Shown here: piece by piece, positions 6,094 through 59,526 of the stretch
Position numbering within the stretch: the stretch's first letter is position 1
How the letters are laid out: every line of letters begins with the position of its first letter
Assembly: GCA_021836725.1 (NCBI GenBank)
Contig: JAKBHL010000014.1
Coordinates: 1 to 61,659 of the forward strand
Source of the DNA: a bacterium
GTDB taxonomy: Bacteria; Patescibacteriota; Minisyncoccia; Phycocordibacterales; Phycocordibacteraceae
Direction: 5' to 3'
DNA length: 61,659 bases
The notes under the pieces: generated by a model
Seen by the model: only the letters and a program-made list of their open reading frames with translations
What the model was told of the DNA's origin: nothing
Database searches by the model: none
Program-made: the position numbers and the translations under genes

Positions 6094-7470
6094 ATGGAAC
6101 ACCGAGAGTTCGAGAAAGAAGTCGAAGAAGCGTTCGAGGCGCCCGCGAAGCTTTTGGAAGACGGCGTCGTGTTGCTCAAAAAAGGGGAGAAAGTACTGGT
6201 CAGTAAGACCCCGCTCAAGCGGGCGGAGGAGTATTGGGATACGCTTGGCCCCGGACTCACGACCGGGGCCGCCGACGACGATCCCTCCGGCATCGCCACC
6301 TACTCGCAGGCGGGTGCGCAGTACGGCCCGCAGCTCATCTGGCTCGCGCTCTTCACGTATCCGTTCATGGCCGTGGTGCAGGAAATGTGCGCGCGGATCG
6401 GACTCGTCTCGGGCCAGGGTCTCGCGGCAAATATCCGGCGGCATTATTCTCCACGCGCGCTCTACATAGTGACGGCGCTTCTATTCTTCGCCAATACGCT
6501 CAATATCGCCGCCGATCTCGGCGCGATGGCCGCGGGGACGCGCCTTCTGCTCCCGAGCGTCGCATTCGAGCTGCTCGTCATCTTTTTCGCGCTGGTGAGC
6601 CTGGCACTCCAGGTGTTCACCACCTACGCGCGCTACGCGAAGTACCTGAAGTATCTGACGCTCGCGCTGCTCTCTTACGTCGTCGTCGCATTCGTCGTGC
6701 ACCTCGATTGGGGCGCTATCCTCTACCATACGCTTGTCCCCTCGCTGACCTTCTCAAAAAATCAGATTTTTCTGATCGCTGCGATCCTCGGAACAACGAT
6801 TTCTCCCTATCTTTTCTTCTGGCAAACCTCCCAGGAAGTCGAGGAGGAGATACGGCGCGGCGAAACCACCGTCAAAACGCGGCGATCGCAAGCGAGCGCA
6901 TCTTTCGTGCGCAGCATGCGTATCGATGTGTGGAGCGGCATGGCTTTCTCGAACCTCATCACGTTCTTCATCTTCGCCGCTTGCGCCGGCACGCTCTACG
7001 CGCACGGCATCACGAATATCGCTACGGCGGATCAGGCGGCGCTCGCGCTGCGGCCGTTCGGGCAGTTTGCGTTTCTGCTCTTTGCGCTCGGCATCGTCGG
7101 AACGGGACTCCTCGCGGTGCCAGTGCTCGCGGGCTCGACCGCGTATGCGATCAGCGAAAGCTTCGGATGGAAGTACGGTCTCTACCGAAAATTGAAACAG
7201 GCATACGCGTTTTACGGCGTCATCATCGTCTCCATGCTGCTTGGCATCGCCGCGAACTTCGCGCATCTCGATCCGATAAAGGGGCTCATCTATGCCGCAG
7301 TCGCAAACGGCATCATCGCGCCGGTCATTCTCTTTTTCGTCGTGCGCCTCTCGGGCAACAGGCGCGTCATGGGCGCACACGCGAACCGCCCGTTCGTTTC
7401 TCTCCTCGGGTGGATGACCATCGGCGCGATGGCCCTCTCGGGCATCGCGGCTATCGTGACGCTCTGGTGA
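6094..7470 (+). CDS. NRAMP-family divalent metal cation transporter
   Basis: GPGLTTGAADDDPSGIATYSQAG; LGTTISPYLFFWQ; many TM helices. Confidence 0.9.
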   Translation: MEHREFEKEVEEAFEAPAKLLEDGVVLLKKGEKVLVSKTPLKRAEEYWDTLGPGLTTGAADDDPSGIATYSQAGAQYGPQLIWLALFTYPFMAVVQEMCARIGLVSGQGLAANIRRHYSPRALYIVTALLFFANTLNIAADLGAMAAGTRLLLPSVAFELLVIFFALVSLALQVFTTYARYAKYLKYLTLALLSYVVVAFVVHLDWGAILYHTLVPSLTFSKNQIFLIAAILGTTISPYLFFWQTSQEVEEEIRRGETTVKTRRSQASASFVRSMRIDVWSGMAFSNLITFFIFAACAGTLYAHGITNIATADQAALALRPFGQFAFLLFALGIVGTGLLAVPVLAGSTAYAISESFGWKYGLYRKLKQAYAFYGVIIVSMLLGIAANFAHLDPIKGLIYAAVANGIIAPVILFFVVRLSGNRRVMGAHANRPFVSLLGWMTIGAMALSGIAAIVTLW

Positions 7471-7709: not shown

Positions 7710-9494
7710 ATGGAAATCCGTAATATCGCCATCATCGCGCACGTCGACCACGGCAAGACGGCTCTCACCGACGCTATCCTCAAGCAGACGGGAGCGGTAG
7801 CCGAGGGGACGACGATGGACTCGAACGCGCTCGAGCTTGAGCGCGGCATCACCATTTACGCCAAGAACGCGGCAGTCGAGTACAAGGGCACGAAGATCAA
7901 CATCGTCGACACGCCCGGCCACGCGGACTTCGGAAGCGAAGTCGAACGCGTCCTGCGCTCCATTGATTCGGTGCTGCTCGTGGTGGACGCTCAGGAAGGC
8001 CCGATGCCGCAGACGCGCTTCGTGCTGAAAAAGTCGCTTGAGCTCGGCCTGAAACCGATCGTCGTACTCAACAAGATCGACAAACCGGCGGCAAACCCGG
8101 CCCGCTCCGAAGAGCAGGTGCTCGAGCTTTTCCTCGAACTCGGCGCTTCGGACGAACAATCCGATTTTCCGGTCATCTATTCGATCGGGCGTGAAGGCAT
8201 TGCCATTAAAAATCTTGACGACGAACGCAAGGATCTCACCCCGTTACTCGACCTCATTCTTGAGAAAGTTCCGGCGGCAAATGCCACTGCCGACGCCGCG
8301 GCACCCCTGTTGCTCCAGCCGTTCAATCTCGCCTATGACAATTTCCTCGGCAGGCTCGCCGTCGGCCGCATTTATGCGGGCACGGTCCGCCCCAATCAGG
8401 CTGTGTTCATAAAGAAACCGGACGGCCACACGCGCACCGGCCGCACCACCAAAGTTTTTACGTTCAAAGGACTCGAGCGCGTCGAAGCGGCCGAGGCGAG
8501 TGCCGGAGACATCGCGCTTATCGCGGGTCTTCCCGACATCTACATCGGCGAGACGGTGACGACCGACGAGCAAGCGGCGACGCTGCCGGCAATCGCGGTG
8601 GATGAACCGACGATCATGCTGAATTTCCTCGTCAATAATTCCCCGTTCGCCGGACGCGAAGGGAAGTACGTGACAAGCCGCCAGATTCGCGCCCGTCTCG
8701 AGAAAGAGCTCGAAGTGAACGTCGGCCTCAAAGTCGATTTCGCCAGCTCGGACGTGTTCCGCGTCTCCGGCCGCGGCGAGCTCCATGTCGCGGTGCTGCT
8801 CGAGAATATGCGCCGCGAAGGCTACGAGCTCCAGGTCTCGCAGCCGCAGGTCATCACTCGCGAAGAGAACGGCGTGAAGCTCGAGCCTTTCGAGGAAGTC
8901 ATCATCGATACGCCGTCGGAATTCCAGGGTGCCATCATCGAAAAGCTCGGGCCGCGCGCTTTCGTGCTTCAGAACCTGGTCCAGCACGGGAACATAGCGC
9001 GCCTCACGTTCGAGGGCCCGACGCGCGGCCTTCTCGGCTACAAGAATACGTTCATCATCGATACGCGCGGCGAAGGGATCCTTTCTTCCCGCGTCATCGG
9101 CTTCAAGCCGTATGCCGGCGAGATCAAGAAGCGCGTTGTCGGCTCGATGATCTCGATGGCATCCGGCAAAGCGCTCGGGTACTCGCTGTGGAACCTCCAG
9201 GACCGCGGACAGCTTTATATAAAACCGGCGACCGAAGTGTACGAAGGCATGGTCATCGGCAACACCGCCAAAGGCGAAGAGATGATGGCGAATCCCACGA
9301 AAGGGAAGAACCAGTCGAACGTCCGTTCTTCCGGAACCGACGAAGCCATAGTCCTGGTGCCGACATTCGATCTCACCATCGAACGCGGGCTCGAGATCAT
9401 GGCCGATGACGAGTATTTGGAAATCACGCCCCAGAGCGTCCGTCTGCGCAAGCAGTTTCTCACCGAGAACGAGCGTGCGAAAGCGCGCCGCTAG
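7710..9494 (+). CDS. typA: Translational GTPase TypA/BipA
   Basis: [17 protein letters not shown]; DTPGHADFG; GRGELH; [14 protein letters not shown]. Confidence 0.96.
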
Positions 9495-10711: not shown

Positions 10712-11535
10712 GCGAATAGCTTTTCGATTTCGGCGCGTTTTGCGACGATATCGTCCTGGCCCATCTGGTATGCCTCGGCCACCTTGCGGCGCACCCGGGT
10801 GAACGTCCCGAGCGGAAGCGGATAAGAAGGGCCGATGACCAGTATCTCGACATCGGATGGAAGATGATCCCATTCGGCCCGGGTCATGTCATTCAGGACG
10901 AGCTGCCGGAGCATCGGACGGGAGAGCAGGGCGGAAATCCGGATAAACCACCTCATTGCGCCCTTGAGCTTTATGGTGTTGGTGATGACGAGGATCTTCG
11001 TCGCGCCTTCTTTTCTGGCCTTGCGGATGAGTTCGGCCATATTTATATTCACATCGCCGTCGATGAACGTATGTCCGCCGAGCCGCACGGAGCCGCCGTA
11101 GAGAAACGGGATCGCTTTGGCGGCGCGCATCACTTCATAGGGATCAAACCATGTATCGTTACTGATGTATTCGGTGCGGCCGGTATCGAGATCGGTAACG
11201 GGAACGAACCAGCGCGTCGGCGTCTGCGCGAGCGCGCGTTCGTCGAGCGGCAGCTCTCTCTTCAGAATGGTATCGACGACATAGTCGAGCCGGAGTTTGG
11301 GCGGGAAGACGCGCACGATTTCCGGCGAAGGGATATAGCGCAGCCACACCTTCTCGATCTCGGCGTACTGCCCGGCAAGGTAATAGAACATCGTGCCGAC
11401 CGAGCCCGAAGCGCTCATGAAGATGTCGGGCCGTTTGATGCCGAGTTTTTTTGCGAGCGCGACGAGCGCGCCGGCGGCATACGCGCACTTCATCCCGCCG
11501 CCGCTCGTGACGATCGCCACTTTCTCTTCCTTCAT
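10708..11535 (-). CDS. Patatin-like phospholipase family protein
   Basis: SGGGMKCAYAAG glycine loop, SGSVG elbow, IDGD; stop overlaps the smpB start (ATGA). Confidence 0.8.
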   Translation of the reverse strand: MKEEKVAIVTSGGGMKCAYAAGALVALAKKLGIKRPDIFMSASGSVGTMFYYLAGQYAEIEKVWLRYIPSPEIVRVFPPKLRLDYVVDTILKRELPLDERALAQTPTRWFVPVTDLDTGRTEYISNDTWFDPYEVMRAAKAIPFLYGGSVRLGGHTFIDGDVNINMAELIRKARKEGATKILVITNTIKLKGAMRWFIRISALLSRPMLRQLVLNDMTRAEWDHLPSDVEILVIGPSYPLPLGTFTRVRRKVAEAYQMGQDDIVAKRAEIEKLFA

Positions 11536-16842: not shown

Positions 16843-17508
16843 ATGGAATCCGCACATCGACGGCGAGGTGCCCAAGGCAGCATCGAGACTCCCGAAAGCG
16901 AACAGGAGGCCTTGAAGCAAAGAGTGGAACAGCTTGAAGGCGAGAATACGCTTCTCAAAGAACGCATCAAGCACCTGGAAAGCCAGCTCGGCATAGATCA
17001 GCTTACCGGCACGAGCAACCGCGGCGTTTTTGAAAATGAGCTCGAGCGCTCTCTCAAAATCATTCGCGGGGAAACGGAGGAGCATCGCTCGACTGCGGAG
17101 CACCACAAAGAGATTTCTCTGATTTTTGTCGACCTCGATCACTTCAAGCAGATCAACGATACCTATGGCCACCCGGCCGGCGACGAAGTGCTGCGGAAAG
17201 TATCCGCGCTTCTCATGGACTCCGTCCGCGAGACGGACATCGTGGCGCGCGTCGGCGGGGAGGAGTTCGTCGTGCTCATGCGCGGCGCCGATGAGTCAGT
17301 CGCTGCGCGCGACGCGGAGGATTTCCGCATGAAAATCTCGCAGATGGAATTCGAAAATTACCCGGATCTGCAAGTGACCGCAAGCTTCGGCGTCTCTTCG
17401 TCAGAAAGCTCGCAATTGGCAAAAGACTTATATGAAAAAGCTGATAAGGCCCTGTATGAAGCAAAACGATCCGGTCGGAATCGGGTCATAGTAGCCGGAA
17501 AAATATGA
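16843..17508 (+). CDS. GGDEF-domain diguanylate cyclase with N-terminal coiled coil
   Basis: DQLTG, DLDHFKQINDTYGHPAGDEVL, RETD I-site, GGEEF, ADKALYEAKRSGRNR. Confidence 0.92.
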   Translation: MESAHRRRGAQGSIETPESEQEALKQRVEQLEGENTLLKERIKHLESQLGIDQLTGTSNRGVFENELERSLKIIRGETEEHRSTAEHHKEISLIFVDLDHFKQINDTYGHPAGDEVLRKVSALLMDSVRETDIVARVGGEEFVVLMRGADESVAARDAEDFRMKISQMEFENYPDLQVTASFGVSSSESSQLAKDLYEKADKALYEAKRSGRNRVIVAGKI

Positions 17509-18395
17509 ACCTCTACGCCGAACGCACCGCAAATATCCGCCGGACGTGGGCACTGGTGCTCGGGTTTTTAATCGTAGTCATTGCGATCGGGTACATTGTT
17601 TCCTGGTATTACGGCAATCCGTTCATCCTCTTCATTGCAGTCATCATTGCCGTAGCGACGAACTTTTACGCGTATTGGGCTTCGGACAAGCTGGTGCTCT
17701 CTCTGAACCATGCTCGACCCGCGACCCGCGAGGAATTTTTTGATTTCTATACCGTCACCGAGAATCTTTCGATTACAGCAGGGCTTCCGAAGCCAAAGCT
17801 CTACGTAATCGACGACCCGGCGCCAAACGCGTTTGCGACCGGCCGCGACGAGAAACATGCGGTTGTCTGCGCGACGACCGGGCTCCTTGCGATGATGACG
17901 CGTCCCGAGCTCGAAGGTGTTATCGGCCACGAGCTTTCGCACATTAAAAACCGCGATATGCTTCTCATGACACTCGCAGTCGTGCTCGCAGGCTTCGTTG
18001 CCATCATCGCGAACATCTTTCTGAATATTTCTTTCTGGGGAGGCGATCGCCGCGACTCGAATGGAAACGCCGTTCTCATGATCCTTGCCGTCGTCGGCAT
18101 CGTGCTCGCGCCGCTCGCCGCGAAACTTATCGAACTCGCCGTCTCGCGGCGGCGCGAGTATCTCGCGGATGCTTCGGGCGTCCTACTCACGCGGTATCCC
18201 GAAGGGCTCGCCTCCGCGCTGCGGAAAATAGGCGGTTACGCGGCGCCGATGCAAAATGCGAATCTCGCAACCGCACATCTTTTTATCGGCGATCCCTTCG
18301 GGGCAAAGTCGGGCGGAAGTTCCGGATGGATCGAGCGCATGTTCTCCACGCATCCGCCGATTCAAGAAAGAATCCAGGCTCTGCTTGGAAAATAA
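17505..18395 (+). CDS. htpX: M48 zinc metalloprotease HtpX
   Basis: PNAFATGR, HELSH, SRRREYLAD, FSTHPP. Confidence 0.93.
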   Translation: MNLYAERTANIRRTWALVLGFLIVVIAIGYIVSWYYGNPFILFIAVIIAVATNFYAYWASDKLVLSLNHARPATREEFFDFYTVTENLSITAGLPKPKLYVIDDPAPNAFATGRDEKHAVVCATTGLLAMMTRPELEGVIGHELSHIKNRDMLLMTLAVVLAGFVAIIANIFLNISFWGGDRRDSNGNAVLMILAVVGIVLAPLAAKLIELAVSRRREYLADASGVLLTRYPEGLASALRKIGGYAAPMQNANLATAHLFIGDPFGAKSGGSSGWIERMFSTHPPIQERIQALLGK

Positions 18396-18407
18396 AAGCA
18401 TCCGGTG

Positions 18408-20054
18408 CTATAACAAGACGCATACGGACTCTCGACAGGGTCCCGAAGCAGGAGGCGTCGGATAGGGGTTTATTCCACCACCTTGGAAAGGTGGCAGGCT
18501 CGAAAGGGTCTCGAGAGTTCGAATCTCTCCGCCTCCGCAGATTGAAACTTCCCCTGGTGTGAGGGGCGCCGCGCGAAGCGCGGCGGAGGGGCGCTCGGGC
18601 AGACAACCGCGCCGCGTAGCGGCGAATGTGAATGGGGCGGCAACCGAAAAGCGCGGGGATGCGGCGTCCAAAACGGGGTTCGTTCCAACTTTCAGCACAA
18701 AACGCTTCAGCGCGCCCAAGTCGCCTGCTGAACTCAAGAAAGCGGCTTGTTTCATATCCAAAATCCATTCCCGCAGGGGTTCGACCCGATTCTTTCTCCC
18801 GCGTTCAACATCTTTCAATTCTGCACGTAAAGCGGCGAGAGAGCGCATCAAGGCGTCCTTCTTGGCGAGATAAATATCTTTTGGCACATCGCCATCGAGA
18901 TACGCCGAGACCAGTCTCTCCATGCGCTCCTCGTCCGCTTTGATCGATTCTGAAAGATGCTGAACCTCGCTTTGCGACGCCCCGACTTCTTCGCGCTCCC
19001 ATCTCTGCACTTCCGCGAGCATCCAGTCGGTGTACCGATCGCAAAGCGAGATTGATTGAAGCCGTGCTCGTATATGGTCGGCGAGGGCACTTTCCTGCAC
19101 ATACGGCTGTCCACATGCACCGCGCTTCTTGGAACAGCGATAGTACCGATAGCGGCCGCCGCACTTGCCGGTCGTCCACTGTGCGCTAATCATCCCGCCG
19201 CACTCACCACAGCGGAAGAGTCCCGTGAGCGGGAAATCGTGCTTCACCCGGCGAGAGCGCGGACGCTCCTTGCCCTCGACGACTTTCCGCACGGCTTCAA
19301 ACAATGCGGGAGTTAGAATCGGCTCAAAGCTTCCCTCAAACCATTCGCCATCGTGTTTGATGAAGCCGAGATACGCTCGATTGGTCAGCAGCCGTTTGAG
19401 GGAAGCTTTGGCAAGTGGCGTGCCATATTTCGTCACCACGCCCAAGTCCGCCAAAAATGCGCCGAGCGAGATGAGTGAGTGCGTCCCTTTGGCGTATTCC
19501 TCGTATGCGAGCTTCACGATACGCGCATTGGTCGGATGTGGCTCGATATTCCTCACGCGCGGATTGTTCTCATAGCCAAAGGGCGCACGATTGAGCCACT
19601 CGCCTCGGCGCAATTTCTGGCGGACGCCGCGCTTGATGTTCTCGCTCAAATTGTCTGAATAATATTTCGATTGCCCGAACGCCACTTGCAACATAAAGAG
19701 CCCCTGCGGGGTTGGAGAGAACCAAAAAGTCGGAAAGCGTAAAGACACGATCTTCGCGGTGTCCACGGCGTAGATGACGCGCCCACCGTCAATCGAGTTG
19801 CGTGCCAAACGGTCGGGGTGCCACGCGAGGATGCCCTGTGCCTCTCCCGCCTCAATGCGCGCCATCATCTCGCTGAACACCGTGCGTCCGGGCGTCTTTG
19901 CGCTTCTCGACTCTTGAAACTCCGCTAGGATTTCAAAATTTTCTTTACGCGCCAACTCGCGTAACTCTACGAGCTGCGCTTCAATACTCATCACCTGGCG
20001 GTCGTCATCCTCCGTCGATTTGCGCGCGTATAGAAAATATTTTGGTTCTCTCAT
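18408..20054 (-). CDS. Large serine recombinase (resolvase, recombinase and Zn-ribbon domains, coiled coil)
   Basis: LYARKSTEDDDRQVMSIEAQ; WHPDRLARN; CGECG...YYRC; the 3' end reads through attL and antisense across tRNA-Ser. Confidence 0.95.
   Translation of the reverse strand: MREPKYFLYARKSTEDDDRQVMSIEAQLVELRELARKENFEILAEFQESRSAKTPGRTVFSEMMARIEAGEAQGILAWHPDRLARNSIDGGRVIYAVDTAKIVSLRFPTFWFSPTPQGLFMLQVAFGQSKYYSDNLSENIKRGVRQKLRRGEWLNRAPFGYENNPRVRNIEPHPTNARIVKLAYEEYAKGTHSLISLGAFLADLGVVTKYGTPLAKASLKRLLTNRAYLGFIKHDGEWFEGSFEPILTPALFEAVRKVVEGKERPRSRRVKHDFPLTGLFRCGECGGMISAQWTTGKCGGRYRYYRCSKKRGACGQPYVQESALADHIRARLQSISLCDRYTDWMLAEVQRWEREEVGASQSEVQHLSESIKADEERMERLVSAYLDGDVPKDIYLAKKDALMRSLAALRAELKDVERGRKNRVEPLREWILDMKQAAFLSSAGDLGALKRFVLKVGTNPVLDAASPRFSVAAPFTFAATRRGCLPERPSAALRAAPLTPGEVSICGGGEIRTLETLSSLPPFQGGGINPYPTPPASGPCRESVCVLL
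18451..18537 (+). tRNA. tRNA-Ser(GGA); integration target
   Basis: GGAGGCG...CGCCTCC-G; anticodon arm CCACC-TTGGAAA-GGTGG; long variable arm. Confidence 0.93.
18535..18641 (+). repeat. att arm Y (107 bp), inverted copy of 20115-20221
   Basis: Base-by-base reverse-complement identity read by eye. Confidence 0.9.
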
Positions 20055-20114
20055 AAATAGATTTGGATTTGAAACAAGCGCTGTATCCCCGCGTCTTTTC
20101 GGTCTTGCCTTGCC

Positions 20115-20392
20115 GCCGCCCCATTCACATTCGCCGCTACGCGGCGCGGTTGTCTGCCCGAGCGCCCCTCCGCCGCGCTTCGCGCGGCGCCCCTCACACC
20201 AGGGGAAGTTTCAATCTGCGGTGAGATACTCACCTTTGCGCGAACCCACTTCGACAACCCAACGACCTAACGCGCCTCGGGCGCTCGCTCCGCTCGCGCA
20301 CATCCCGCGCCGTTTCCTTTGCATTTTTGTGCGGCTCCTCCCCCGACCCCTCCGCCGAAAGGCAAAAAATGATGGAAAAGGAAACGGCGCGG
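20115..20392 (-). repeat. Internal inverted attP-like junction: arm Y' (20115-20221) plus arm X' (20218-20392), overlapping at GCGG
   Basis: Left part is the reverse complement of 18535-18641; right part is the reverse complement of 25326-25500. Confidence 0.9.
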
Positions 20393-20411
20393 ATGTGCAC
20401 CTATTGAAATA

Positions 20412-20438
20412 TATCACAATATTGTGATACTTCACAAT
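20412..20438 (+). promoter_or_regulatory. Probable HTH (C-box-like) operator
   Basis: 18-bp perfect palindrome TATCACAATATTGTGATA (20412-20429), overlapping ATTGTGA-tact-TCACAAT (20421-20438), upstream of the XRE gene. Confidence 0.65.
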
Positions 20439-20462
20439 AATCTGTATGATTGTGGTGTGGAT

Positions 20463-20669
20463 ATGAGCACACCATCAACCAAACTTGGGAAAAACATCAA
20501 GCGCATTCGCGAACAGAAGAACATGTCGCAAGGAGACATATGCCGCGAAGTCGGTTTTGATCGTGCGCAGATGAGCAATATCGAGTCGGGCAAAGGAAAC
20601 CCCACCCTTGCGACGATAGAGAAGATTGCCCGTGCGCTCGGTGTCACGAGCGACGAACTGCTAAAATAA
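20463..20669 (+). CDS. XRE-family HTH regulator (RM controller-like)
   Basis: LGKNIKRIREQKNMSQGDICREVGFDRAQMSNIESGKGNPTLATIEKIARAL. Confidence 0.9.
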   Translation: MSTPSTKLGKNIKRIREQKNMSQGDICREVGFDRAQMSNIESGKGNPTLATIEKIARALGVTSDELLK

Positions 20670-20673
20670 ATTT

Positions 20674-21798
20674 ATGGCTAGAGAAGCATCAGTCAAAAAT
20701 CTTACGAATGCTAAACGGGCAAAGAACGATGAGTTTTATACTCAGTACATCGACATTCAGAAAGAAATTGAAAAGTATTTAGATTACAACCCTAATACAT
20801 TCCGAACTAAGGTAGTGTATTGCAATTGTGACGATCCCTTCGAGAGCAATTTCTTTCGTTATTTTGTTCTCAATTTCAACAAACTTGGATTGAAACAGCT
20901 TATCACCACGAGCTACAAGCCATCGCCTGTCGCAAACACACAATTAGGATTATTTGGCGACGACAAGACGTTAGGCACGCCAAAAGGTCGCCCAAAAATA
21001 ACCGCCAACAAATTTATTATCAATGAAGTAAAGGACATAGATGGCGACGGCGAGTTTAACTTGAAAGACGTTGCCAAACAGTTAAAGGCAAACAAAAACA
21101 ATGAATGGGCACCTCTGGCTGGCGACGGCGATTTCCGTAGCGATGAGTGCGTTGAGCTGCTCAAGCAGTCCGATATAGTGGTAACCAATCCGCCTTTCAG
21201 TCTGTTTCGTGAATATGTAAGGCAACTCTATGATTACAATAAAAAGTTTTTGATCATCGGTAATATCAATTGCATAACTTACAGAGAAATATTCCAAAAG
21301 ATCAAAGAAAACAGGGCGTGGCTTGGTAATGGAATGGGCAGATGGATTTCTGGGTTTATTGTACCCGAGTCCTATGACTTGTACGGGACAGAAGCTCGGA
21401 TAGATGAGAACGGAAACAGAATCGTTGCCACTAACAATTGTTTATGGCTCACCAATCTTGATCACGGACGTCGTCATCAACCATTGCCGCTTATGACCAT
21501 AGCGGAGAATTTGAAGTATAGTAAACATAAGGAAATCAGAGGTAAAGAATCATATGATACATATGATAATTACGATGCGATAGAAGTACCTTTCACCGAC
21601 GCAATACCAAGTGATTATAAAGGCGTAATGGGTGTGCCGGTTAGTTTTTTGGACAAATATAATCCTGATCAGTTTGAAATTGTCGGATGTTCTTATGATT
21701 ATGGAAGACCCGAAGGATGGGATAAGGATATCGATATGGCAGTCTCGATAAATGGCGTGAATGTGTATAAAAGGATATTAATCGAACATAAAAAATAG
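20674..21798 (+). CDS. Adenine-specific DNA methyltransferase, EcoRI family
   Basis: [37 protein letters not shown]. Confidence 0.9.
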
Positions 21799-21799
21799 T

Positions 21800-22969
21800 A
21801 TGAAAACAACTTTGAAAATAAATACTACCGTTAGGGAGATTTGCGACGGTTTCGTATATAACGAACTCGAAGGCAAAGGTTTGTTCGGTCTGTCTGGCAA
21901 GCTCACTATCCAGCCGGAATATCAGCGTAATTATATTTACGCCTCTGACGGCGGCAAAAGAGAAATGGCCGTCATTGAGTCAGTGCTCAAAGGGTATCCA
22001 ATAGGGTTGATCTACTTCAATGAAGTCTCTGCCGACAATCTAGAAGTTTTAGACGGGCAACAGCGCATCACCAGTCTGGGGCGGTTTGTGACTGATAAAT
22101 TTGCCATCAAAGACGAGAACGGGATGGAGCAATATTTTGGCGGCATGGCAAAAGACAAGCAAAAAAAGATTTTGGAAACGAAATTACTCATTTACGAGTG
22201 TGAGGGCACCGAAAGCGAAATAAAAGAGTGGTTCAAGACCATTAACATTGCGGGTGTGCCATTGAACGATCAAGAGCTTCTGAACGCCGTGTACTCGGGG
22301 CCGTTCGTCACGCTCGGCAAGGAAGAGTTTAGTAACAGCCAAAACGCCAATATACAGAAGTGGAGCGCGTACATTCGTGGTAGTGCCGCACGGCAGGAGT
22401 TTTTGGAGCGCGCGCTTGATTGGGTAAGCAAAGGCAACATTGGCGACTATATGAGCCGTCATCGCACCGACAAAAATATCACCGAACTCAAGACCTATTT
22501 CAAGAGCGTGATTGACTGGGCGTCCAGTGTCTTTACCGATGTAGAAAGTGAGATGAAGGGACTTGAGTGGGGCCGGCTCTATGAGGAGCATCACAAGAAG
22601 GCGTATAGTCCCGCGAAGGTGTCTGCTGAAGTACATAAACTCTACGCCGATCCATACATCAAAAATCGCAAAGGAATTTTTGAGTACGTTCTCGGCGGAT
22701 CTAGCGACACAAAGTTGCTAGAGGTGCGCGTGTTTGATGAGGCGACTAAAAAAGCGACCTATGCAACACAGACTGCGGCGGCGGAAAAGAAGCACGCTTC
22801 AAACTGCCCGCTCTGCGCGATTGGACACGATGCGAGCAAAGACAAGATTTGGAAACTAGACGAAATGGATGCCGACCACGTTGCGGCGTGGAGCAAGGGC
22901 GGCAAGACTTCCTCGAAAAACTGTCAGATGCTCTGCAAGACGCATAATCGAGCGAAAGGTAATCGTTAA
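21800..22969 (+). CDS. DUF262 (GmrSD-like) plus C-terminal HNH endonuclease
   Basis: [19 protein letters not shown]; CPLC...DADH...[14 protein letters not shown]. Confidence 0.88.
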
Positions 22970-23051
22970 AATCGCAAGAGGGCTTAAGGCTTGTAAAATA
23001 AGCCCAAAATGTTGGTTAAATAGAAAAAAGACAATTTTCTGTCTAAAATGC

Positions 23052-23080
23052 TTGACTTTTAAAACAAGTAGGAATACAAT
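23052..23080 (+). promoter_or_regulatory. sigma70-type promoter for the ATPase pair
   Basis: TTGACT-17 nt-TACAAT. Confidence 0.6.
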
Positions 23081-23119
23081 GTCTGTATTAATACAAAATA
23101 ATGTCATTATACCAAGATT

Positions 23120-24394
23120 ATGTTAATAACAAGAATTAAGGCTAGCAACTTCTACGGGATAAAAGATCCTGTTGAAGTGTCGTTCACCGAAGGCGGCGAA
23201 AAAGAAAAAATAGGATATGTAAATTTCGGGAAAGAGAGAATCTCTCTTATCTCTGGTTTTTATGGTGCCAATGCGTCAGGTAAAAGTACCATATTAAACA
23301 TTATCGATACTGTAGCCAGAATAATGGTCGCGAAACAACAAGATTTTGTACTTGCTCCTAACGGGATAAAACAAGAGGTCGTTATATCTCTTCCAAACTT
23401 TACAACTGCGATGCAGACGAAACCCATTGTAATGGAGATGGATTTTATTATTGGAGACGATAAATATAATTATTCAGTTTCTATCATAAATGAGGGTAAG
23501 GAAATTTCAGAAGAAGTTTTATACAAAAATACTAAAAAAATCTTCAGTAGAAAAGATCATGGTATTTCGTTTGAAAGCAAAATTGGAAAAAATATAGATG
23601 CTTTAGCTAAAAATATCGTAGCACCAAAGAAATCTTCTTTTCTCTCTGTTATTTTAGATGACAGCTCTGATGTTTCTGTATTCGCAAACATCAAAGAAGA
23701 AATTGGAATTTCTAATCTTAACCAAATAAAGACCAATTTCTGTTTTATTACTGATAAGCGTTCGGTTCAGATGGGGCAAAATAATCTTAACGGGTTACTT
23801 GCTTTTGCAATTAACTATCTCAATAGCAATACTCAAAAACAGAGCGAAATGCTTGGTGCAGTTAATTCTGTAGTAAAGTATTTTGAGCCATCTTTTGAGA
23901 GTCTTGTTATCAAAAAAGAAAGTGATGTTAACCCAATAAACAAATCTTTCGCCTTTACCTACGAAGCAAAATATAAGGACTTCTATAAAAATCTTGGTAC
24001 CACAGAACTCTCTGCTGGAACGCGAGAACTCATCGCGTATATAGGAGATATTCTTAGAATATTAAAAGTGGGAGGCGTTGTTATCTACGACGAGACAAGC
24101 AAGTTTTATCACCCAGATATGGAGATTGCTATTCTCAACCTCTTTAAAGACAAAGACATAAACAAGAAAAATGCCCAATTATTCTTTTCATCACACAATC
24201 ACGAGACATTTGACCTCTTACAGAATGATCAGGCACACATTGTAGAAAAGAAAGATGGCAATATTGTTGTGTCAAAAGTGTCAGATTACGATGTTAAAGA
24301 AAGAGATAACATAAAGAGAATCTATCGTCTCGGTTCGCTTGGAGGCATACCAAATACTATTGATTTCAGTAGGATTATAAATAATCTCTTATAA
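23120..24394 (+). CDS. AAA/ABC ATPase, RloA/AbiEii-like
   Basis: GFYGANASGKST; ELSAGT; IYDE...FYHP; QLFFSSHN; YRLGSLGGIP; very AT-rich. Confidence 0.82.
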   Translation: MLITRIKASNFYGIKDPVEVSFTEGGEKEKIGYVNFGKERISLISGFYGANASGKSTILNIIDTVARIMVAKQQDFVLAPNGIKQEVVISLPNFTTAMQTKPIVMEMDFIIGDDKYNYSVSIINEGKEISEEVLYKNTKKIFSRKDHGISFESKIGKNIDALAKNIVAPKKSSFLSVILDDSSDVSVFANIKEEIGISNLNQIKTNFCFITDKRSVQMGQNNLNGLLAFAINYLNSNTQKQSEMLGAVNSVVKYFEPSFESLVIKKESDVNPINKSFAFTYEAKYKDFYKNLGTTELSAGTRELIAYIGDILRILKVGGVVIYDETSKFYHPDMEIAILNLFKDKDINKKNAQLFFSSHNHETFDLLQNDQAHIVEKKDGNIVVSKVSDYDVKERDNIKRIYRLGSLGGIPNTIDFSRIINNLL

Positions 24395-24398
24395 GCTT

Positions 24399-24971
24399 AT
24401 GCCTAAAAAGAAAAGCTTTAAGATATATTATTTACTACTCACCGAAGGAACAACGGAATTTAATCTTTTTGGTTATTTAACAACCAATAAGTTTAAAGGA
24501 GACTTTGAGGGTTCTAATGTTCAATTTAGTATCAAGGTTGAAATTGTAGACGCTGGAATCTCACAAGGTAAATTAAACGGAGTTGGAAATGGCACTTCTT
24601 TTAAGACCAAATATGACTCGATTAAAGACGATACTAGATATGTTGGTCAAAAATTATTCTTTGTGATAGATAAGGATTTTGACGATTCTTTGCAAGTAAA
24701 AGAGCTTATAGAAAAAGATGGCAATATCGTCCAGTTTGTTGAATATAATTCTGAACATCTATTGTTAAGATTTGGAGGCAAGAACCCCAGGAATCCTAAA
24801 GATTTTAAAAATATGGGAGAGTTTAGAGATTATTGCAAGAACGAATTTGAAAAACAGTTCAATAAGAAAGCCTCAGAGTTTAAAGATGCTGATTTCGATT
24901 CAATATTTGCAAATACTACAGACGATGCAGTAAAGAAAACTTTTGTTGAATTGTTTTCTACCCTGTCTTAA
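24399..24971 (+). CDS. RloB-like (Toprim-like) partner protein
   Basis: N-terminal LTEG and a VIDKD acidic motif; directly follows the ATPase. Confidence 0.6.
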   Translation: MPKKKSFKIYYLLLTEGTTEFNLFGYLTTNKFKGDFEGSNVQFSIKVEIVDAGISQGKLNGVGNGTSFKTKYDSIKDDTRYVGQKLFFVIDKDFDDSLQVKELIEKDGNIVQFVEYNSEHLLLRFGGKNPRNPKDFKNMGEFRDYCKNEFEKQFNKKASEFKDADFDSIFANTTDDAVKKTFVELFSTLS

Positions 24972-25325
24972 TTTATAAAGGGAGCCGCCCGCTGATGCGG
25001 GCGGGCTTGCGCGCGCACTGGGTGGGCGGGGCAAGCGCACACAGATTGCTTGTGCCCTTCGGTAGTTGGGCACAATCCGCTTTTTGAGTTGGCACCGGCT
25101 CGACCGAAGTCGCCGAGCGAACACGGAGCCGCACCGAACAGGCATCGCGAGCGAATGCGAGCGGCCTGTGCGAGGTGCGGGCGTAGTGTGAGCGGACGCT
25201 AGAGCTACACCAAATGTGGCTATGGGAGCGCCTCGTCCGCCACGAGGACGGAGAAAGCGGAGATTGGGAGCAATGGATACTTTGCGACCTTTCGGAGCTT
25301 TAGGAGGACGAAGTGGCGGGGCAGA

Positions 25326-25500
25326 CCGCGCCGTTTCCTTTTCCATCATTTTTTGCCTTTCGGCGGAGGGGTCGGGGGAGGAGCCGCACAAAAATGCAAA
25401 GGAAACGGCGCGGGATGTGCGCGAGCGGAGCGAGCGCCCGAGGCGCGTTAGGTCGTTGGGTTGTCGAAGTGGGTTCGCGCAAAGGTGAGTATCTCACCGC
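25326..25500 (+). repeat. att arm X (175 bp), inverted copy of 20218-20392; ends at the attR core CCGC
   Basis: Reverse-complement identity read by eye. Confidence 0.9.
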
Positions 25501-25539
25501 CGACATGAAAATAAGCGCCATTAGGCGCTATTTTTGTCG

Positions 25540-25582
25540 GCGGAGGCGAGCCCTGCCGGGGGCAGGGCGTGAGAGATTCGAA
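25540..25582 (+). repeat. Anti-tRNA-Ser module a
   Basis: GCGGAGGCG + hairpin + GAGAGATTCGAA is the reverse complement of tRNA 18518-18538, split by a hairpin. Confidence 0.75.
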
Positions 25583-25744
25583 GACCTTGCGAGCATTTTA
25601 TGAAGCGAAGCGAACAGAAAATCCGCAAGGTGTACTGAAACTGTATGAGGACATACATCTTCTTCGTTCGGCGTTAAATAATAATTGGTTCATCATTATT
25701 TAAGCCTCACTCATCACTGTAAGTTTCGAAAAGCGTAACCGCGG

Positions 25745-25826
25745 TCTCTCCGCCTCCGCAAAACAAGTCTGCACAGTTTTGCGGAGGCGAGCAAGGCGTC
25801 TGCACGCCTTGCGTGAGAGATTCGAA
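25745..25826 (+). repeat. 16-bp copy of the tRNA-Ser 3' end followed by anti-tRNA module b
   Basis: TCTCTCCGCCTCCGCA is identical to 18524-18539; followed by GCGGAGGCG + hairpin + GAGAGATTCGAA. Confidence 0.8.
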
Positions 25827-25903
25827 TGGCGCAGCCATATGCGAGTCCGCGAGCATGGCGAGCCGAGGCGATACGTTGGTTCGGGGCATGTATAATAAGA
25901 TTC

Positions 25904-26590
25904 ATGAGACTTACTTTGAAAAACAGAAAACCTGAGGTTCCCGGCGTCGAGTCGTTCATCTTCGAGCCGAAAGAGCAGCTTTCCTGGAAAGCCGGACAGT
26001 TTCTCCACTACGTTCTCCACCACGAACCAACAGATGACCGTGGTTCTGACCGTTGGTTCACCGTTGCGTCGGCTCCATCCGAGGGACACATTATGCTCAC
26101 GACGCGCTTTGCTGAAGAGAACGAAAGTTCCTTCAAAAAGGCGCTCAAGAAACTCAAGATTGGCGACGCGATCGAGATAGCGGACGTCGATGGCGACTTC
26201 CTCGTCGAAAACATGGATGCAGAATATGTTTTCATCGCCGGTGGCATCGGTATCACCCCGTTTCGCTCCATTTTGAAAGAGCTCGAACATGACGGCAAAA
26301 AGATCCACGCAACTCTTCTGTACTCCAATCGCGACGAGTATATTCCTTACAAAGAAGAATTAGACGCTCTAAGTGCAAACAATCCCCACCTGAAAATTGT
26401 CTACATAGTTGGTGGCCGCATAGACGAAACGGCGATCCGCAAAGCAGCACCCGAGCTGCAGAAGCCCATCTTCTATGTTTCCGGTCCGGAACCCATGGTG
26501 AATGCACTCAACGATATGCTTAAAGGAATGGGCGTGCCAGAAATCAACTTCAAGGGGGATTGGTTTCCTGGCTACAGTGTAGAAAGTTAA
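25904..26590 (+). CDS. FAD/NAD(P)-binding oxidoreductase (ferredoxin reductase-like)
   Basis: RWFTVASAP, FIAGGIGITPFRS, FYVSGPEPMV. Confidence 0.9.
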   Translation: MRLTLKNRKPEVPGVESFIFEPKEQLSWKAGQFLHYVLHHEPTDDRGSDRWFTVASAPSEGHIMLTTRFAEENESSFKKALKKLKIGDAIEIADVDGDFLVENMDAEYVFIAGGIGITPFRSILKELEHDGKKIHATLLYSNRDEYIPYKEELDALSANNPHLKIVYIVGGRIDETAIRKAAPELQKPIFYVSGPEPMVNALNDMLKGMGVPEINFKGDWFPGYSVES

Positions 26591-26633
26591 ATAATCCTCA
26601 ATGAGGACCCTGCTCGGATTTTAAGAATGTAAT

Positions 26634-29600
26634 TTACGCAGACGTTGGTTGCGTCTTGCGGGGAGCACGGTAGAACAAGACGGGTACGAGTATGAGGGTG
26701 AGGACGATAGCAAAGGAAAGTCCGAACATGATGCTGAAAGCAAGCGGTCCCCATGTCGGATTGCTCAGCGACAGCGGGATCATACCGATGACGGTGGTAA
26801 TGGTCGTGAGCACGATAGGGCGCAAGCGGGTTGCCGCCGACTCGATGACGACATCGATGAGCGGGAGGTCGGGCGCCGCGCGCAAACGATGGATCATTGA
26901 ATCCATCAAAATGATGGCATGATTGATGATGACGCCGCCGAGCGCGATCACTCCGAGAAGCGAAGAGAAAGAAATGGGCTGTCCCACCAGTGCCAATCCA
27001 TCGAGCACGCCGATGAGTGAAAGCGGTACGATCATGATGAGATAGAACGTATAGCGGAACGAATTGAACGCGACGATAAGAATCATGAACATGAGCACAA
27101 GACCGGCGATGAGCGCCACGAACATTTGCGAAAATGATTGATTGATATTCTGCGTATCGCCTCCGTAGGAGACCGAGACGCCGGGCGGCAGGGAGAGAGA
27201 ACTCAGACGCCTCTGAAAGGCGCTTACCACCGCCGATGCGGTCGTATGGCTATCAGGATATGCGGAGACAGTCTCCAGGCGCACTTTATCTTTATGCATG
27301 ATACTCGCGTTGCTTTGCCCGAGCGAGTCGGTGAGAATGGATCCAAGCAATACCGGTCCGGCAGAACCCTCAATGGTGAGATTTTTGATGCTCTCAATGG
27401 TTGTTTGATTGGTATTGGACGGACTAGTATAAGCCGAATTGAGATTCATCATGACGACAACATCGATATTTTTATTCGGCTGAGTGATGCTGATCGCTTT
27501 AGTACCCTGCAGAGCGCTACGGAGCGTCTGCGCAACCTGAAGCGTATTCACGCCAAGTGCCGCCGCTTTTGCGCGGTCGATGGTGAGGTCAAATTCGGTC
27601 CCGTTATTTTGCGTACTGCTGGTGAGATTCGTCACGTGGGGAATGGTCGCGAGCAATTGTTCGCCCCTATCGGCGGCAGTGATGAGATCATTGAGGTTAT
27701 TTCCTTCAAATTGGATTTGTATGGGAGCGCTGCTCGGCGGTCCGCCGCTTGCTTGCAACACCTGAATTGTGGCATCGGTGATAGGCGCGAGCCTTTTTTG
27801 CAAGTCATTCACCACCTGGGTGCTCGTTTTTGCATGGCCAAGCGGCAAGTTGACGGTGATGTTCGCGACGTTACTTCCGTTTGCGCCGCCGCTGAGCATA
27901 TCGGTAAATGCCGAACTCTGGCCCACGGTTGTTTGAAAAGAGTAAATATCAGGATCATGCTGTAGCACGGCCTCGACCTGGCGTACGGCATCGTTGGTAA
28001 CCGCAAGCGTGGTTCCCTGGGGTTCGGTCACGTTGATAAAAACATAATCCTGATTACTCTGCGGCAAGAAGACCGTCTGTATCAGGCCGAATAGCGGAAG
28101 GGAGATGGAGAGCAGGAAGAGCCCTCCCAAAGACAGCAAGAATATTTTTTGCGTATGACGATGCTCCAGTATGGTGCGCAGCAGTCGTTTGTACCAGGCG
28201 GTAAATCGATCGGTGTATGCTTCCTGCAGCATCGTCAATCTATTTTTTCGTTTCGTGCTGAAAAGAATGGCGATGAGCGGCACCAACCCAAGCGAAACGA
28301 AAATCGACGCCATGAGCACGAAAATAAGCGTATACGGAATGCCGGCGATGAATTTGCCGATAATGCCGGTGATGAAAAAGAGCGGCAAAAACACCGCGAC
28401 GGTCGCCATCGTACCCGCGATGAGCGGCCACGCATAATCGGCAAGCGCTTTCTGTGCGGCCGCAAGCGCATCGCCGTTCCCGCGCATGCGCGCATGAATG
28501 GCCTCGGTCACGACAATGCCCGAGTCCACCAAAATGCCCACTGCCAGAATAAGAGCGAACAACGTAATGAAATTCAATGAATTGCCCGTGAAGTACAGCC
28601 CTATAAAGGCAATGAGGAACGAAAGCGGGATAGAGATCGCGGCGACGATCGCTTCGCGCCAGCCGATGGTGATTAAGAGGACGAGAATGACCAGCGCAAC
28701 CGTCTCAACACCGGTCTTCGCAAGCTCCCCCAACTGTTTGCCAACCTGCACCCCCATGTCCGTGGAAGGCGAGATGTAGACGTTAAAACCTGTCAACGTT
28801 GTTTTTTCCATCGAGGTGAGTGCCTGCCGCACCGCGTCCGACACTCCCTGGGTAGATGCGCCCGCTTGCTTGTATACGGAAAAAGTGATTGCGTTTTGGC
28901 TTGGCGCCCCGCCGACAGATAGCCGGGAATAGGTCGTTGCCGGTGCGAGACCGTTGAAAACGGTTGCAACGTCACGGAGATAAATGAGAGTGCCGTTTTT
29001 ATTTGCGACCACTATGTTTTGAATGGCGTCAGGATTGGTGATGCTCCCTTTAAAATTTACGTTGTAGGAAATGCCATCCATGGAAATAGACCCGATGGGC
29101 AACGTCGCATTGCTTGTTTGTATAGCGGAGATGACATCCGAGATCTGCAATCCGTATAAAAGAAGCGCCTTCTTATCAACGACGACATCGACTTGTCTGT
29201 CAGGAACGCCGGTGACATGTACGTCGGAGACGCCGGAAATGCGTTTCAAGGCATCCGACACCGTTTGTCCGACTGTAGAAAGCGTAAGTGGCGGCACATC
29301 AGAAGACACCGAGGCGATAAGAATTGGTGTGTTAGAGAAACTGACCTTGGTTACCGAAGGAGTAGAAGCGTCGGCGGGCAGGTTCGGGACGACTTTCGCC
29401 ACCGCATCGCGAAGATCCTGAATGGACTGAGTAATGTCTGCGTTCGCCAGAAACTGCACCGTGATTTGCGAAACGCCGTTACTCGAGACCGATGTCATCG
29501 TATCTATATTGCTGATGCCGGATATCTGGTCTTCCAGCTTGTTGGTGATCAGCGTTTCAATGTCTGCGGCGGCCGCGCCCGGAAGCGTCGTTACGACAAC

Positions 29601-59264: not shown

Positions 59265-59350
59265 GGAGGCGTCGCATAGTTGGTCTAGTGCGCCGGTTTC
59301 GAAAACCGGTATACCGCAAGGTATCGTGAGTTCGAATCTCACCGCCTCCG
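59265..59350 (+). tRNA. tRNA-Ser(CGA)
   Basis: GGAGGCG...CGCCTCC-G; CCGGT-TTCGAAA-ACCGG; long variable arm. Confidence 0.93.
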
Positions 59351-59526
59351 CAAACAAAAACATCCCGTTCGGATAGAGCCGCGCGCGGGGTTGATGCGGT
59401 AGAATTAGTAGAATTGACGGGAGTTTGGGTTCAAATTCTTTTCAGCTCCAGGGCCGGTTGAATAAAAAAAGAGCCCGCGAGGTTAGCCAAGCGGGCTCTG
59501 TCATTTGATTGAAGATTCTACACGGT

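Follow-up and report, generated by a model that had tools for sequence, protein, structure and literature searches.

A tRNA-associated large serine recombinase element of Patescibacteria that carries an intact inverted attP within itself

The stretch of DNA considered here, contig JAKBHL010000014.1 of assembly GCA_021836725.1 from a member of the Phycocordibacteraceae (Patescibacteriota), is 61,659 nucleotides (nt) long and is referred to below as the window. Within it, the 3' end of a tRNA-Ser(GGA) gene is occupied by an integrative element of 6,962 bp, with a large serine recombinase (LSR) gene at one end and a block of cargo genes at the other, and this element carries, in addition to its outer attachment sites attL and attR, an intact and inverted attP internally. 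The question raised by the locus is why an element that is already integrated keeps this spare site. The explanation that we regard as the best overall, and to which we assign a probability of roughly 0.45, is that the element is an LSR element of tRNA ends, the circular form of which would carry two copies of attP, and that the spare copy would be retained as a selected site for the LSR.

Two inverted repeats stand out in a self-comparison of positions 17000-27500 (Table 1). The repeat termed Y, 107 nt in length, is found at the tRNA end of the element and again, as a reverse complement with 100% identity (Y'), upstream of the LSR gene; the repeat termed X, 175 nt in length, is likewise perfect between its internal copy (X') and its distal copy, and its arms agree at 99% when extended to 178 nt (20215-20392 versus 25326-25503). 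Probes of 30 nt taken from X and Y each have exactly two occurrences in the window, and a chance origin of the repeats was ruled out because the expectation for such probes is 0. Weaker homology continues past Y (80% between 18647-18666 and 20079-20098), offset by a 9-nt insertion in the internal copy. The junctions were read directly, with a slash marking each joint: attL is tRNA..cgcctCCGC/agattgaaac, attR is ..tatctcaCCGC/cgacatgaaaat (also given as ..tatctcaCCGC/cgacatgaaaataagcgcc), and the internal site, on the other strand, is ..tatctcaCCGC/agattgaaac, which equals X joined to Y. The core CCGC is common to attL, attR and the internal Y'/X' junction. An earlier examination of this DNA from its letters and open reading frames (ORFs), hereafter the sequence-only reading, had proposed an LSR-type element with attL, attR and an internal inverted intact attP, perfect inverted repeats of these two lengths that each occur twice, a 4-bp core CCGC at all three junctions and a degenerate extension of the Y homology, and all of these proposals were confirmed by the junctions and by the self-comparison, the last with the 9-nt offset described above.

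The source sample, run X1, is mine drainage and holds the whole region. The same host was found with an empty site in four other runs, three from the study to which X1 belongs and one from another, and its flanks showed zero mismatches. In each of the four runs, a contig joins 18534 to 25497, thereby skipping 6,962 nt with 4 nt being ambiguous, at depths of 40.9, 11.2, 10.7 and 13.1, which are those of the host, and the depth over 18704-25325 is zero. Since four runs show a clean empty site in the same host, the whole block is regarded as one insertion. The reconstructed attB is ..GAATCTCTCCGCCTCCGC/CGACATGAAAATAAGCG, and the hairpin of the native tRNA terminator (25514-25529) comes directly after it.

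The data of all of the runs found are kept in Logan as contigs with k=31, in which inversions between perfect repeats create no new k-mers. In X1, independent unitigs cross the inner repeat borders 20114/20115 (depth 19.4) and 20392/20393 (depth 9.8), and their loose ends are exactly the alternative continuations predicted from the window. Depth was 12.5 for the attP-type unitig 20192-20247, 10.8 for the attL-type unitig and 15.5 for the attR contig, and the shared Y unitig reached 25.1, which is roughly the sum of two copies. The nearly equal depths of the junction unitigs together with the doubled Y unitig indicate that the internal attP is present about once per genome, and X1 gave no sign of abundant free circles, with the attP-type depth of 12.5 showing no excess over the attL depth of 10.8. 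It is extremely improbable that the assembler merged an integrated and an excised form into one contig, even though the internal junction is identical in sequence to a circle junction and many contigs of metagenome-assembled genomes (MAGs) break in these repeats. Both inner repeat borders are crossed by independent unitigs, the three junctions are about equally deep, each copy of Y has its own form of the degenerate inner extension, and the layout is repeated in approximately 150 independent assemblies, including complete chromosomes. An assembly artefact was thus ruled out by the unitigs over both inner borders, the equal junction depths, the empty site and the family survey, and the argument of the sequence-only reading against an assembly duplication was upheld by read-derived unitigs that support the 20085-20400 junctions. 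As a separate observation in X1, the cargo unitigs (20393-25325) had depths of 7-10, the junction and LSR unitigs 11-21 and the host flanks 15.5-16.5; the G+C content does not explain the low depth of the cargo because the segment at 22-23 kb, with 48.7% G+C, also has a depth of 7. A second cargo variant in the X1 population is possible, on a spread of depths that is too wide to conclude.

The element is not an isolated case and belongs to a very large, so far nameless family of small cargo carriers of Patescibacteria. The GTDB species genomes contain 501 confirmed relatives of the LSR, and the JGI metagenome contigs contain more than 578; matches at E<=1e-10 comprise at least 6,045 protein clusters, annotated only as 'recombinase family protein' or 'Pin-like invertase'. 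In a comparison of 160 fetched loci (66-95% LSR identity), almost all from Patescibacteria MAGs, the layout tRNA/Y-LSR-Y'/X'-cargo-X was present in approximately 150, and it was also found in the complete chromosomes CP060229.1 and OY970382.1; the search of other genomes of the candidate phyla radiation (CPR) for the same X/Y arrangement, which had been suggested as a check, therefore had a positive outcome. A Y-type repeat, typically 131 nt, flanks the gene in approximately 120 LSR copies, while an X-type repeat of 44-340 nt abuts Y' wherever upstream sequence exists and encloses 0.9-8.9 kb of cargo. The internal junction with the conserved X end was present in 35 of the 36 loci having upstream sequence. 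The outer end of Y always adjoins an opposite-strand tRNA gene or the X end of another element. Tandem arrays occur in L004, L116, L126, L141 and L031, and in some of them the X of one element directly meets the Y of the next; the joint of the L004 array lies at 11505-11516. The arrays of L031 have identical 180-nt spacers (4695-4880 and 8275-8455) that start with a 17-nt fragment of the tRNA-Ser 3' end. In IMG/VR, the peptide patterns used detected no relatives among phages.

Many contigs break off either within the distal X or at a point 100-300 nt upstream of the LSR, and the repeats are thus considered to break assemblies because contigs end in Y' or X; across the loci compared (L001-L160), Y' and X are a recurrent cause of assembly breaks in Patescibacteria. 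In addition, the LSR block (18403-20509) and the block comprising the non-coding module Z and the distal X (24724-25700) were observed at 90-99% identity in runs X2, X3 and X5, which are from groundwater, wastewater and sludge, at a depth far above that of the host flanks (400-680x in X2), and in X5 the helix-turn-helix (HTH) gene was followed by a different cargo.

The att sites of the family have a constant geometry. Y starts with the conserved motif A(A/G)AT(T/A)GAAACTTC, and X ends with GGTTCG(C/A)GCAAAGG..TCACCGC. The distance to the P' (Y) motif is 33 nt for the GTTCG of X, as counted in 86 of 87 internal sites, and 27 nt for the GTTCGAA of the tRNA T-loop, as counted in 57 of 61 attL sites; the offset of GTTCG between attP and attB is therefore 6 bp outward in X, a value that refers to the left half-sites only. 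In LSR sites, the DBD2 motif of attP has been described as lying 5 bp further from the centre than that of attB (PMC11722253), and the 6-bp shift fits this classical offset of attP and attB half-sites. The arm downstream of the tRNA is not conserved. The core shared at the junctions measures 4-9 nt in 17 relatives, and no core position that is non-palindromic in all sub-families was found, so that no crossover point is placed. The tRNA genes targeted in more than 90 loci are those for Ser (five anticodons), Glu, Arg, Leu, Gly and Ala.

Regarding the recombinase, the Resolvase (PF00239), Recombinase (PF07508) and Zn_ribbon_recom (PF13408) domains of Pfam were all detected over their cut-offs, and its matches in PDB included SPbeta SprA (E 9e-14, residues 9-402) and A118 Int (E 4e-4, C-terminal domains). 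Its reading frame in the window passes through Y, over the core and into the antisense strand of the tRNA gene, and the first in-frame stop lies 4-550 nt past the core in approximately 70 loci, with one exception. Approximately 45 residues encoded by Y are conserved (..PSQFVAxRRxxLPxxAPSARxxSxLSxxEVSICG). Since the LSR frame crosses the core, integration swaps the last residues of the recombinase: the integrated form in the window ends with ..ICG/GGEIRTLE.., the 42 residues beyond ICG being read from the antisense tRNA, and the frame continued into X would, in our own reading of the window sequence, end with ..ICG/EILTFARTHFDNPTT. In every locus, approximately 165 bp separate the internal site from the LSR start codon downstream of it. 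Metatranscriptome contigs of relatives (runs X53, X55 and X57) cover the LSR 5' end, Y', the core and X' (19891-20253) at a low depth, a weak observation for which DNA carry-over is possible.

Insertion was by conservative site-specific recombination through the element's own LSR. The attB site consists of the tRNA 3' end and an unconstrained downstream arm, with the T-loop GTTCGAA as the distal recognition motif, and attP is X-core-Y. The predicted free circle would have one pair of inverted repeats of approximately 285 bp (300-450 bp in relatives), each being X-core-Y, which would divide it into a segment with the LSR and a segment with HTH, cargo and Z. Integration would use the copy that overlaps the 3' end of the LSR gene and split it into attL and attR, and the other copy would stay intact and inverted at its place upstream of the LSR start, beside the divergent HTH gene. 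Concerning the use of this remaining copy, we tentatively propose, as a possible but doubtful explanation, that it may be a selected LSR-binding site in the leader or promoter region of the LSR gene, by which the recombinase would limit its own expression. Autoregulation is favoured because of the position of the site, its conservation and a precedent among att sites (PMC2951348); autoregulation through the att site has been proposed to be common for tRNA-associated integrase genes (PMC2951348).

Several points weigh against this proposal. The internal core is not intact in two close relatives: the X end, core and P' motif are deleted in L003 (~7750-7830), and a rearranged X end is fused to the middle of Y' in L082 (~6380-6480). 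No circular form was observed, the junction k-mers of a circle being identical to those of the internal site. No convincing LSR promoter was found in a promoter and terminator scan, which detected only the displaced tRNA terminator and promoter-like hexamers beside the HTH palindrome, and the geometry of an operator thus has no anchor. Moreover, a binding site needs only approximately 50 bp, and perfect repeats of 107 and 175 nt and the inversion would have to be a legacy of duplication plus gene conversion. Two equivalent attP sites would also lead to half of the integrations having the LSR co-oriented with the tRNA, a form that was never seen; since only one isomer is seen, the other isomer would be counter-selected or the two copies would be non-equivalent.

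The arms of the repeats are 97-100% identical within an element, yet widely different between elements, and they therefore show concerted evolution. Mismatches amounted to 218 in Y over 116 elements (1.4%) and to 34 in X over 45 elements (0.3%). There was no excess of G:U-compatible mismatches between the arms on either strand (47 versus 60; 13 versus 9), half of the arm mismatches were of the transversion type, and the mismatch profile along Y was flat and uninformative. The smaller number of mismatches in the longer X and the restriction of inversions to the X-flanked segment fit length-dependent homologous recombination: recombination between copies would keep the repeats alike, and an occasional crossover in the longer X arms would flip the cargo segment. 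Decayed repeats (77-85%) with an intact LSR ORF were found in L047, L056, L126 and L131. An alignment of the first three showed that the internal P' arm is kept in all of them (the P arm is shown for L047) and that almost no change has occurred in the inner 25-45 nt of Y' (none in L047 and L056), in contrast to a diverged middle. This retention of the arms points to selection on the internal LSR site, although the sample is small and patchy conversion is an alternative.

Among the explanations that compete with a selected LSR site, a self-rearranging switch, in which the LSR or host recombination would flip the two segments independently and produce four isomers with different expression states, is the one that the sequence-only reading had favoured, and we consider it unlikely. 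Both segments are bounded by long perfect inverted repeats, and the serine recombinases Hin, Gin and Cin flip segments, including, in the case of Hin, the one with its own gene. However, the LSR segment, for which an independent flip had been suggested, has its 3' end facing the tRNA in more than 90 loci and is inverted in none, so that this part of the suggestion was not sustained. For the cargo segment the evidence is divided. With HTH and Z as markers, it is wholly inverted in approximately 7 of 50 contigs (L086, L102, L120, L146, L152, L159 and perhaps L153), and L159 and L160, which are the same element (100% over 2,865 nt), carry it in opposite orientations; every one of the inverted contigs ends in the distal X, where a choice by the assembler is possible, and the orientation is uniform in all 15 contigs that read through the X arms into the host with the HTH marker. 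In addition, the protein is an LSR of 548 aa and not a small recombinase with a C-terminal HTH, and canonical LSRs do not recombine attP with attL, attR or another attP (PMC11722253). A related possibility, which selection on the site would suit as it does autoregulation, is that the internal site keeps the integrated element on standby, competent for attP x attB recombination without excision, which would be consistent with the conservation of its P and P' arms even in old elements, with the lack of a conserved candidate for a directionality factor besides the small HTH, with tandem arrays as repeated use of the same tRNA locus and with a near-identical B arm elsewhere in the window. The latter belongs to a second tRNA-Ser gene, tRNA-Ser(CGA), in the same orientation 34 kb away, a potential second attB judging from its B arm, which differs in one base. 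This gene is unoccupied and shows no rearrangement, which argues against standby use, and split elements with the LSR between two convergent tRNAs, as expected from such use, were found in 0 of the 36 loci with upstream sequence; moreover, the capture of DNA would disrupt the internal site, which is preserved in nearly all loci. Secondary integration through the internal attP, which had likewise been suggested, would invert both segments, and this isomer was never seen among the related loci. We therefore judge standby use to be improbable. Given the near-identical second B arm, a live internal attP has a potential cost, in that recombination with the second tRNA-Ser would invert 39 kb.

Other explanations address the repeats rather than the recombination that they might permit. 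An ancestral inverted duplication of attP may have been fixed by chance and kept by gene conversion without having any function, which would account for a repeat far longer than any LSR site, for the better homogenization of the longer arm and for the survival of L003 and L082 without an intact internal core, and the constant boundaries of Y across the family are consistent with one ancestral event. We nevertheless find such a neutral legacy quite unlikely, because the arrangement is kept in approximately 150 of the 160 loci, down to an LSR identity of 66%, in very small elements of streamlined genomes, and because old elements keep the binding arms nearly intact while the middle of the repeat diverges. 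Improbable, too, is a spread of the element in single-stranded form, for example by natural transformation of competent CPR cells, to which the double inverted repeat would be an adaptation. In the single strand, Y would pair with Y' and X' with X, the continuous Y'/X' might act as a splint that aligns both ends as a nicked double-stranded attP, and flap trimming and ligation might yield a precise circle without the recombinase or excision from the donor; such pairing might also correct the repeats without inversion. The mobile substrate of this serine-recombinase element would then be a folded single strand. A splint of this type would explain the two abutting repeat pairs, an internal junction that is the exact complement of the joined ends, arms that are identical within and diverged between elements and an LSR segment that is never inverted; it would suit an element with no transfer genes and no phage relatives found in IMG/VR, and folded single-strand substrates are known for the CTX phage and for integron attC sites. 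There is, however, no direct evidence of a single-stranded stage, the 4.5-fold difference in mismatches between X and Y is unexpected from a common reset, serine recombinases are not known to use folded single strands, and the resulting circle would still have two attP sites, yet one integration isomer is seen. Very improbable, finally, is a role of the repeats as RNA stems, in which duplexes formed upon read-through from the tRNA promoter or within the LSR mRNA would serve as signals for RNase III processing or silencing, as in rRNA operons. In its favour are the shared orientation of cargo and tRNA, the displacement of the native tRNA terminator to a place just past X, and the complementarity between the 5' leader of the LSR and the 3' end of its coding sequence; a constraint on the repeats from RNA pairing is nevertheless argued against by the lack of a G:U bias and by the share of transversions, and such pairing needs no exact meeting of the arms at a recombination core.

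The element has partial parallels in known systems. Hin, Gin and Cin are small serine invertases; the hin gene lies inside the invertible segment, and the P1 C segment has repeats of 0.6 kb. As in these systems, inverted repeats with recombinase sites enclose the recombinase gene and, separately, an adjacent segment; in contrast to them, the enzyme is an LSR rather than a small invertase with a Fis enhancer, the recombinase segment was never seen inverted, and a full attP and hybrid att sites stand in place of the equivalent hix, gix and cix sites. In the yeast 2-micron plasmid, which is autonomous, FLP, a tyrosine recombinase, acts on FRT sites in 599-bp inverted repeats, and equimolar isomers serve copy-number amplification. 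The predicted circle likewise has one pair of inverted repeats with the recombinase target and two unique segments, whereas it has no replication gene, one isomer is dominant, and attP x attP recombination is non-canonical for an LSR. A recombinase-binding site, putative in the present case, in the control region of the recombinase gene is shared with IntS of KplE1 and with the Tn3 resolvase at res; in those systems the working site overlaps the promoter, whereas here it is a duplicated copy, with the working copy at the 3' end of the gene. In the phages with integration-dependent immunity, attP lies inside a gene and integration, by a tyrosine recombinase, alters the C-terminus of the product. 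The element resembles them in that attP lies in a reading frame and integration replaces C-terminal residues. The term integration-dependent immunity is used in PMC9262239. Unlike in these phages, the affected gene is that of the recombinase itself, which is of the serine type, and a degradation tag is not among the features shown. We know of no internal inverted attP in either SCC elements or tycheposons. SCCmec/Ccr elements and tycheposon-like tRNA islands, the latter from streamlined genomes, are also small, recombinase-driven cargo carriers at the 3' end of a conserved gene, with tandem stacking and frequent defence genes (PMC11470126; 10.1101/2020.12.28.424599). They differ from the present family in that SCC elements use CcrAB or CcrC at rlmH with direct repeats and in that tycheposons have mainly tyrosine recombinases. 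With the LSR integrases of temperate phages and integrative elements (SPbeta SprA, A118/LI Int, phiC31 and Bxb1), the element shares the Resolvase, Recombinase and zinc-ribbon architecture, a sequence similarity that can be detected for SprA and A118 Int, a core of only 4 nt and half-sites offset by approximately half a helical turn (PMC11722253). Unlike these integrases, it targets tRNA 3' ends, read through the T-loop motif, and has a recombinase ORF that extends over attP as well as a second, inverted and intact attP in its interior. It shows no evident gene for a directionality factor, and the elements, at approximately 3-11 kb, are tiny and not phage-borne.

Only the LSR, the 68-aa HTH protein and the non-coding Z are conserved across the family. 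The HTH gene occupies the same place, just past X' and divergent from the LSR gene, in approximately 39 loci and is thus a backbone gene of the family and not simply a restriction-modification (R-M) controller; the sequence-only reading had listed it together with the defence genes. Between this gene and X' lies a perfect palindrome, TCACAATATTGTGA. Apart from the small HTH, no conserved candidate for a directionality-factor gene is evident, and neither replication nor transfer genes are present in the element. The cargo of the window copy, with a G+C content of 30-49% versus 52-60% around it, is made up of a type II R-M block (20674..22969) and an AbiL-like block (23120..24971), which agrees with the description of the element as a defence element. 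This description does not extend to the family, the relatives of which carry a mixed cargo that includes a copper P-type ATPase with DsbD/cupredoxin, several R-M systems, a helicase, surface proteins, GTP cyclohydrolase II, an aromatic amino acid lyase and a xanthine/uracil permease. Cargo genes were observed to be nearly all co-oriented with the HTH and tRNA genes (L010, L015, L025, L050, L053, L059, L064, L076, L096 and L130).

The Z module adjoins the distal X in approximately 33 loci (L004, L021, L024, L053, L059, L068, L076 and L130 among them) and contains GCGAGCG repeats, and its core (~25100-25325) has a covarying secondary structure. A hand-drawn structure of four helices gave 83% paired cells in a 17-sequence alignment versus 26-49% with slid partners, ten pairs showed double changes, and the observed score was reached by 0 of 500 shuffles. 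The strand signal was G:T 27 and A:C 17, and Rfam gave no match in the element besides the tRNA. The low-depth metatranscriptome contigs from runs X53, X55 and X57 also cover the Z-X border (25226-25384).

Table 1. Features of the element and of its tRNA sites in the window.
Feature	Position	Strand	Basis or remark
Large serine recombinase ORF, 548 aa	18408..20054	-	Pfam; SprA and A118 Int matches in PDB
tRNA-Ser(GGA)	18451..18538	+	ARAGORN; 3' end (T-loop GTTCGAA through acceptor stem) is the B arm of attB
attL core CCGC	18535..18538	.	Empty-site joint ambiguous over 4 nt
Y, terminal copy	18535..18641	+	P' arm AGATTGAAACTTCC plus 90 nt; minus strand encodes the LSR C-terminal tail
Degenerate continuation of terminal Y	to ~18666	+	Self-comparison
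Conserved LSR body	18642..20054	-	Part of the recombinase ORF
LSR leader with conserved block CTTGTTTCAAATCC	20055..20114	-	Includes degenerate inner end of Y' (20079-20114)
Y', internal inverted copy of Y	20115..20221	+	Unitig crosses 20114/20115
Core GCGG of internal inverted intact attP	20218..20221	.	Junction unitig 20192-20247, depth 12.5
X', internal inverted copy of X	20218..20392	+	P arm GGTTCGCGCAAAGGTGAGTATCTCACCGC on the other strand
Intergenic control region, palindrome TCACAATATTGTGA at 20414-20427	20393..20462	.	Promoter-like hexamers on both strands, consensus matches only
Cro/C1-type HTH protein	20463..20669	+	Pfam, PADLOC; divergent from LSR
EcoRI-like adenine methyltransferase (type II R-M)	20674..21798	+	Pfam, PADLOC
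GmrSD_N/DUF262-HNH endonuclease (type II R-M)	21800..22969	+	Type II endonuclease model, E 2e-83
AAA_21 ATPase AbiLi	23120..24394	+	PADLOC, E 1.4e-54
AbiLii/RloB-like protein, weak	24399..24971	+	PADLOC, AbiLii E 3e-4
Z, GC-rich non-coding module beside distal X	24975..25325	+	Starts with AGGGAGC and a terminator-like hairpin
X, terminal copy	25326..25500	+	P arm at right end
attR core CCGC	25497..25500	.	Junction reading, empty site, unitig depth
B' arm of attB and displaced native tRNA terminator	25501..25540	+	Hairpin 25514-25529, then T run
Second tRNA-Ser(CGA), near-identical B arm AGTTCGAATCTCACCGCCTCCGC	59265..59351	+	ARAGORN; unoccupied

The full-text literature searched, the coverage of which is incomplete, contained no account of this family or of an LSR element with an internal inverted attP; a paper on gene exchange in Patescibacteria that covers nzgw456 (locus L021) refers to genomic islands and mentions no recombinase or repeats. 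The spare inverted attP and the reading frame across attP are not predicted by current LSR models, and they raise the question of how directionality or expression is controlled without a known directionality factor. They also have practical consequences. The internal site mimics a circle junction, by which pipelines that call excision from attP reads are misled, and the repeats break short-read assemblies, by which pipelines that orient these segments are misled. For recombinase engineering, the family is of interest as a source of hundreds of natural LSR/attP/attB triplets in which attB is the conserved T-loop and acceptor end of a tRNA. Mobile DNA is poorly described in Patescibacteria, and the present family, which may be the most widespread family of integrative elements in these bacteria, carries R-M, Abi, metal-resistance and metabolic genes into the tRNA loci of very small genomes.

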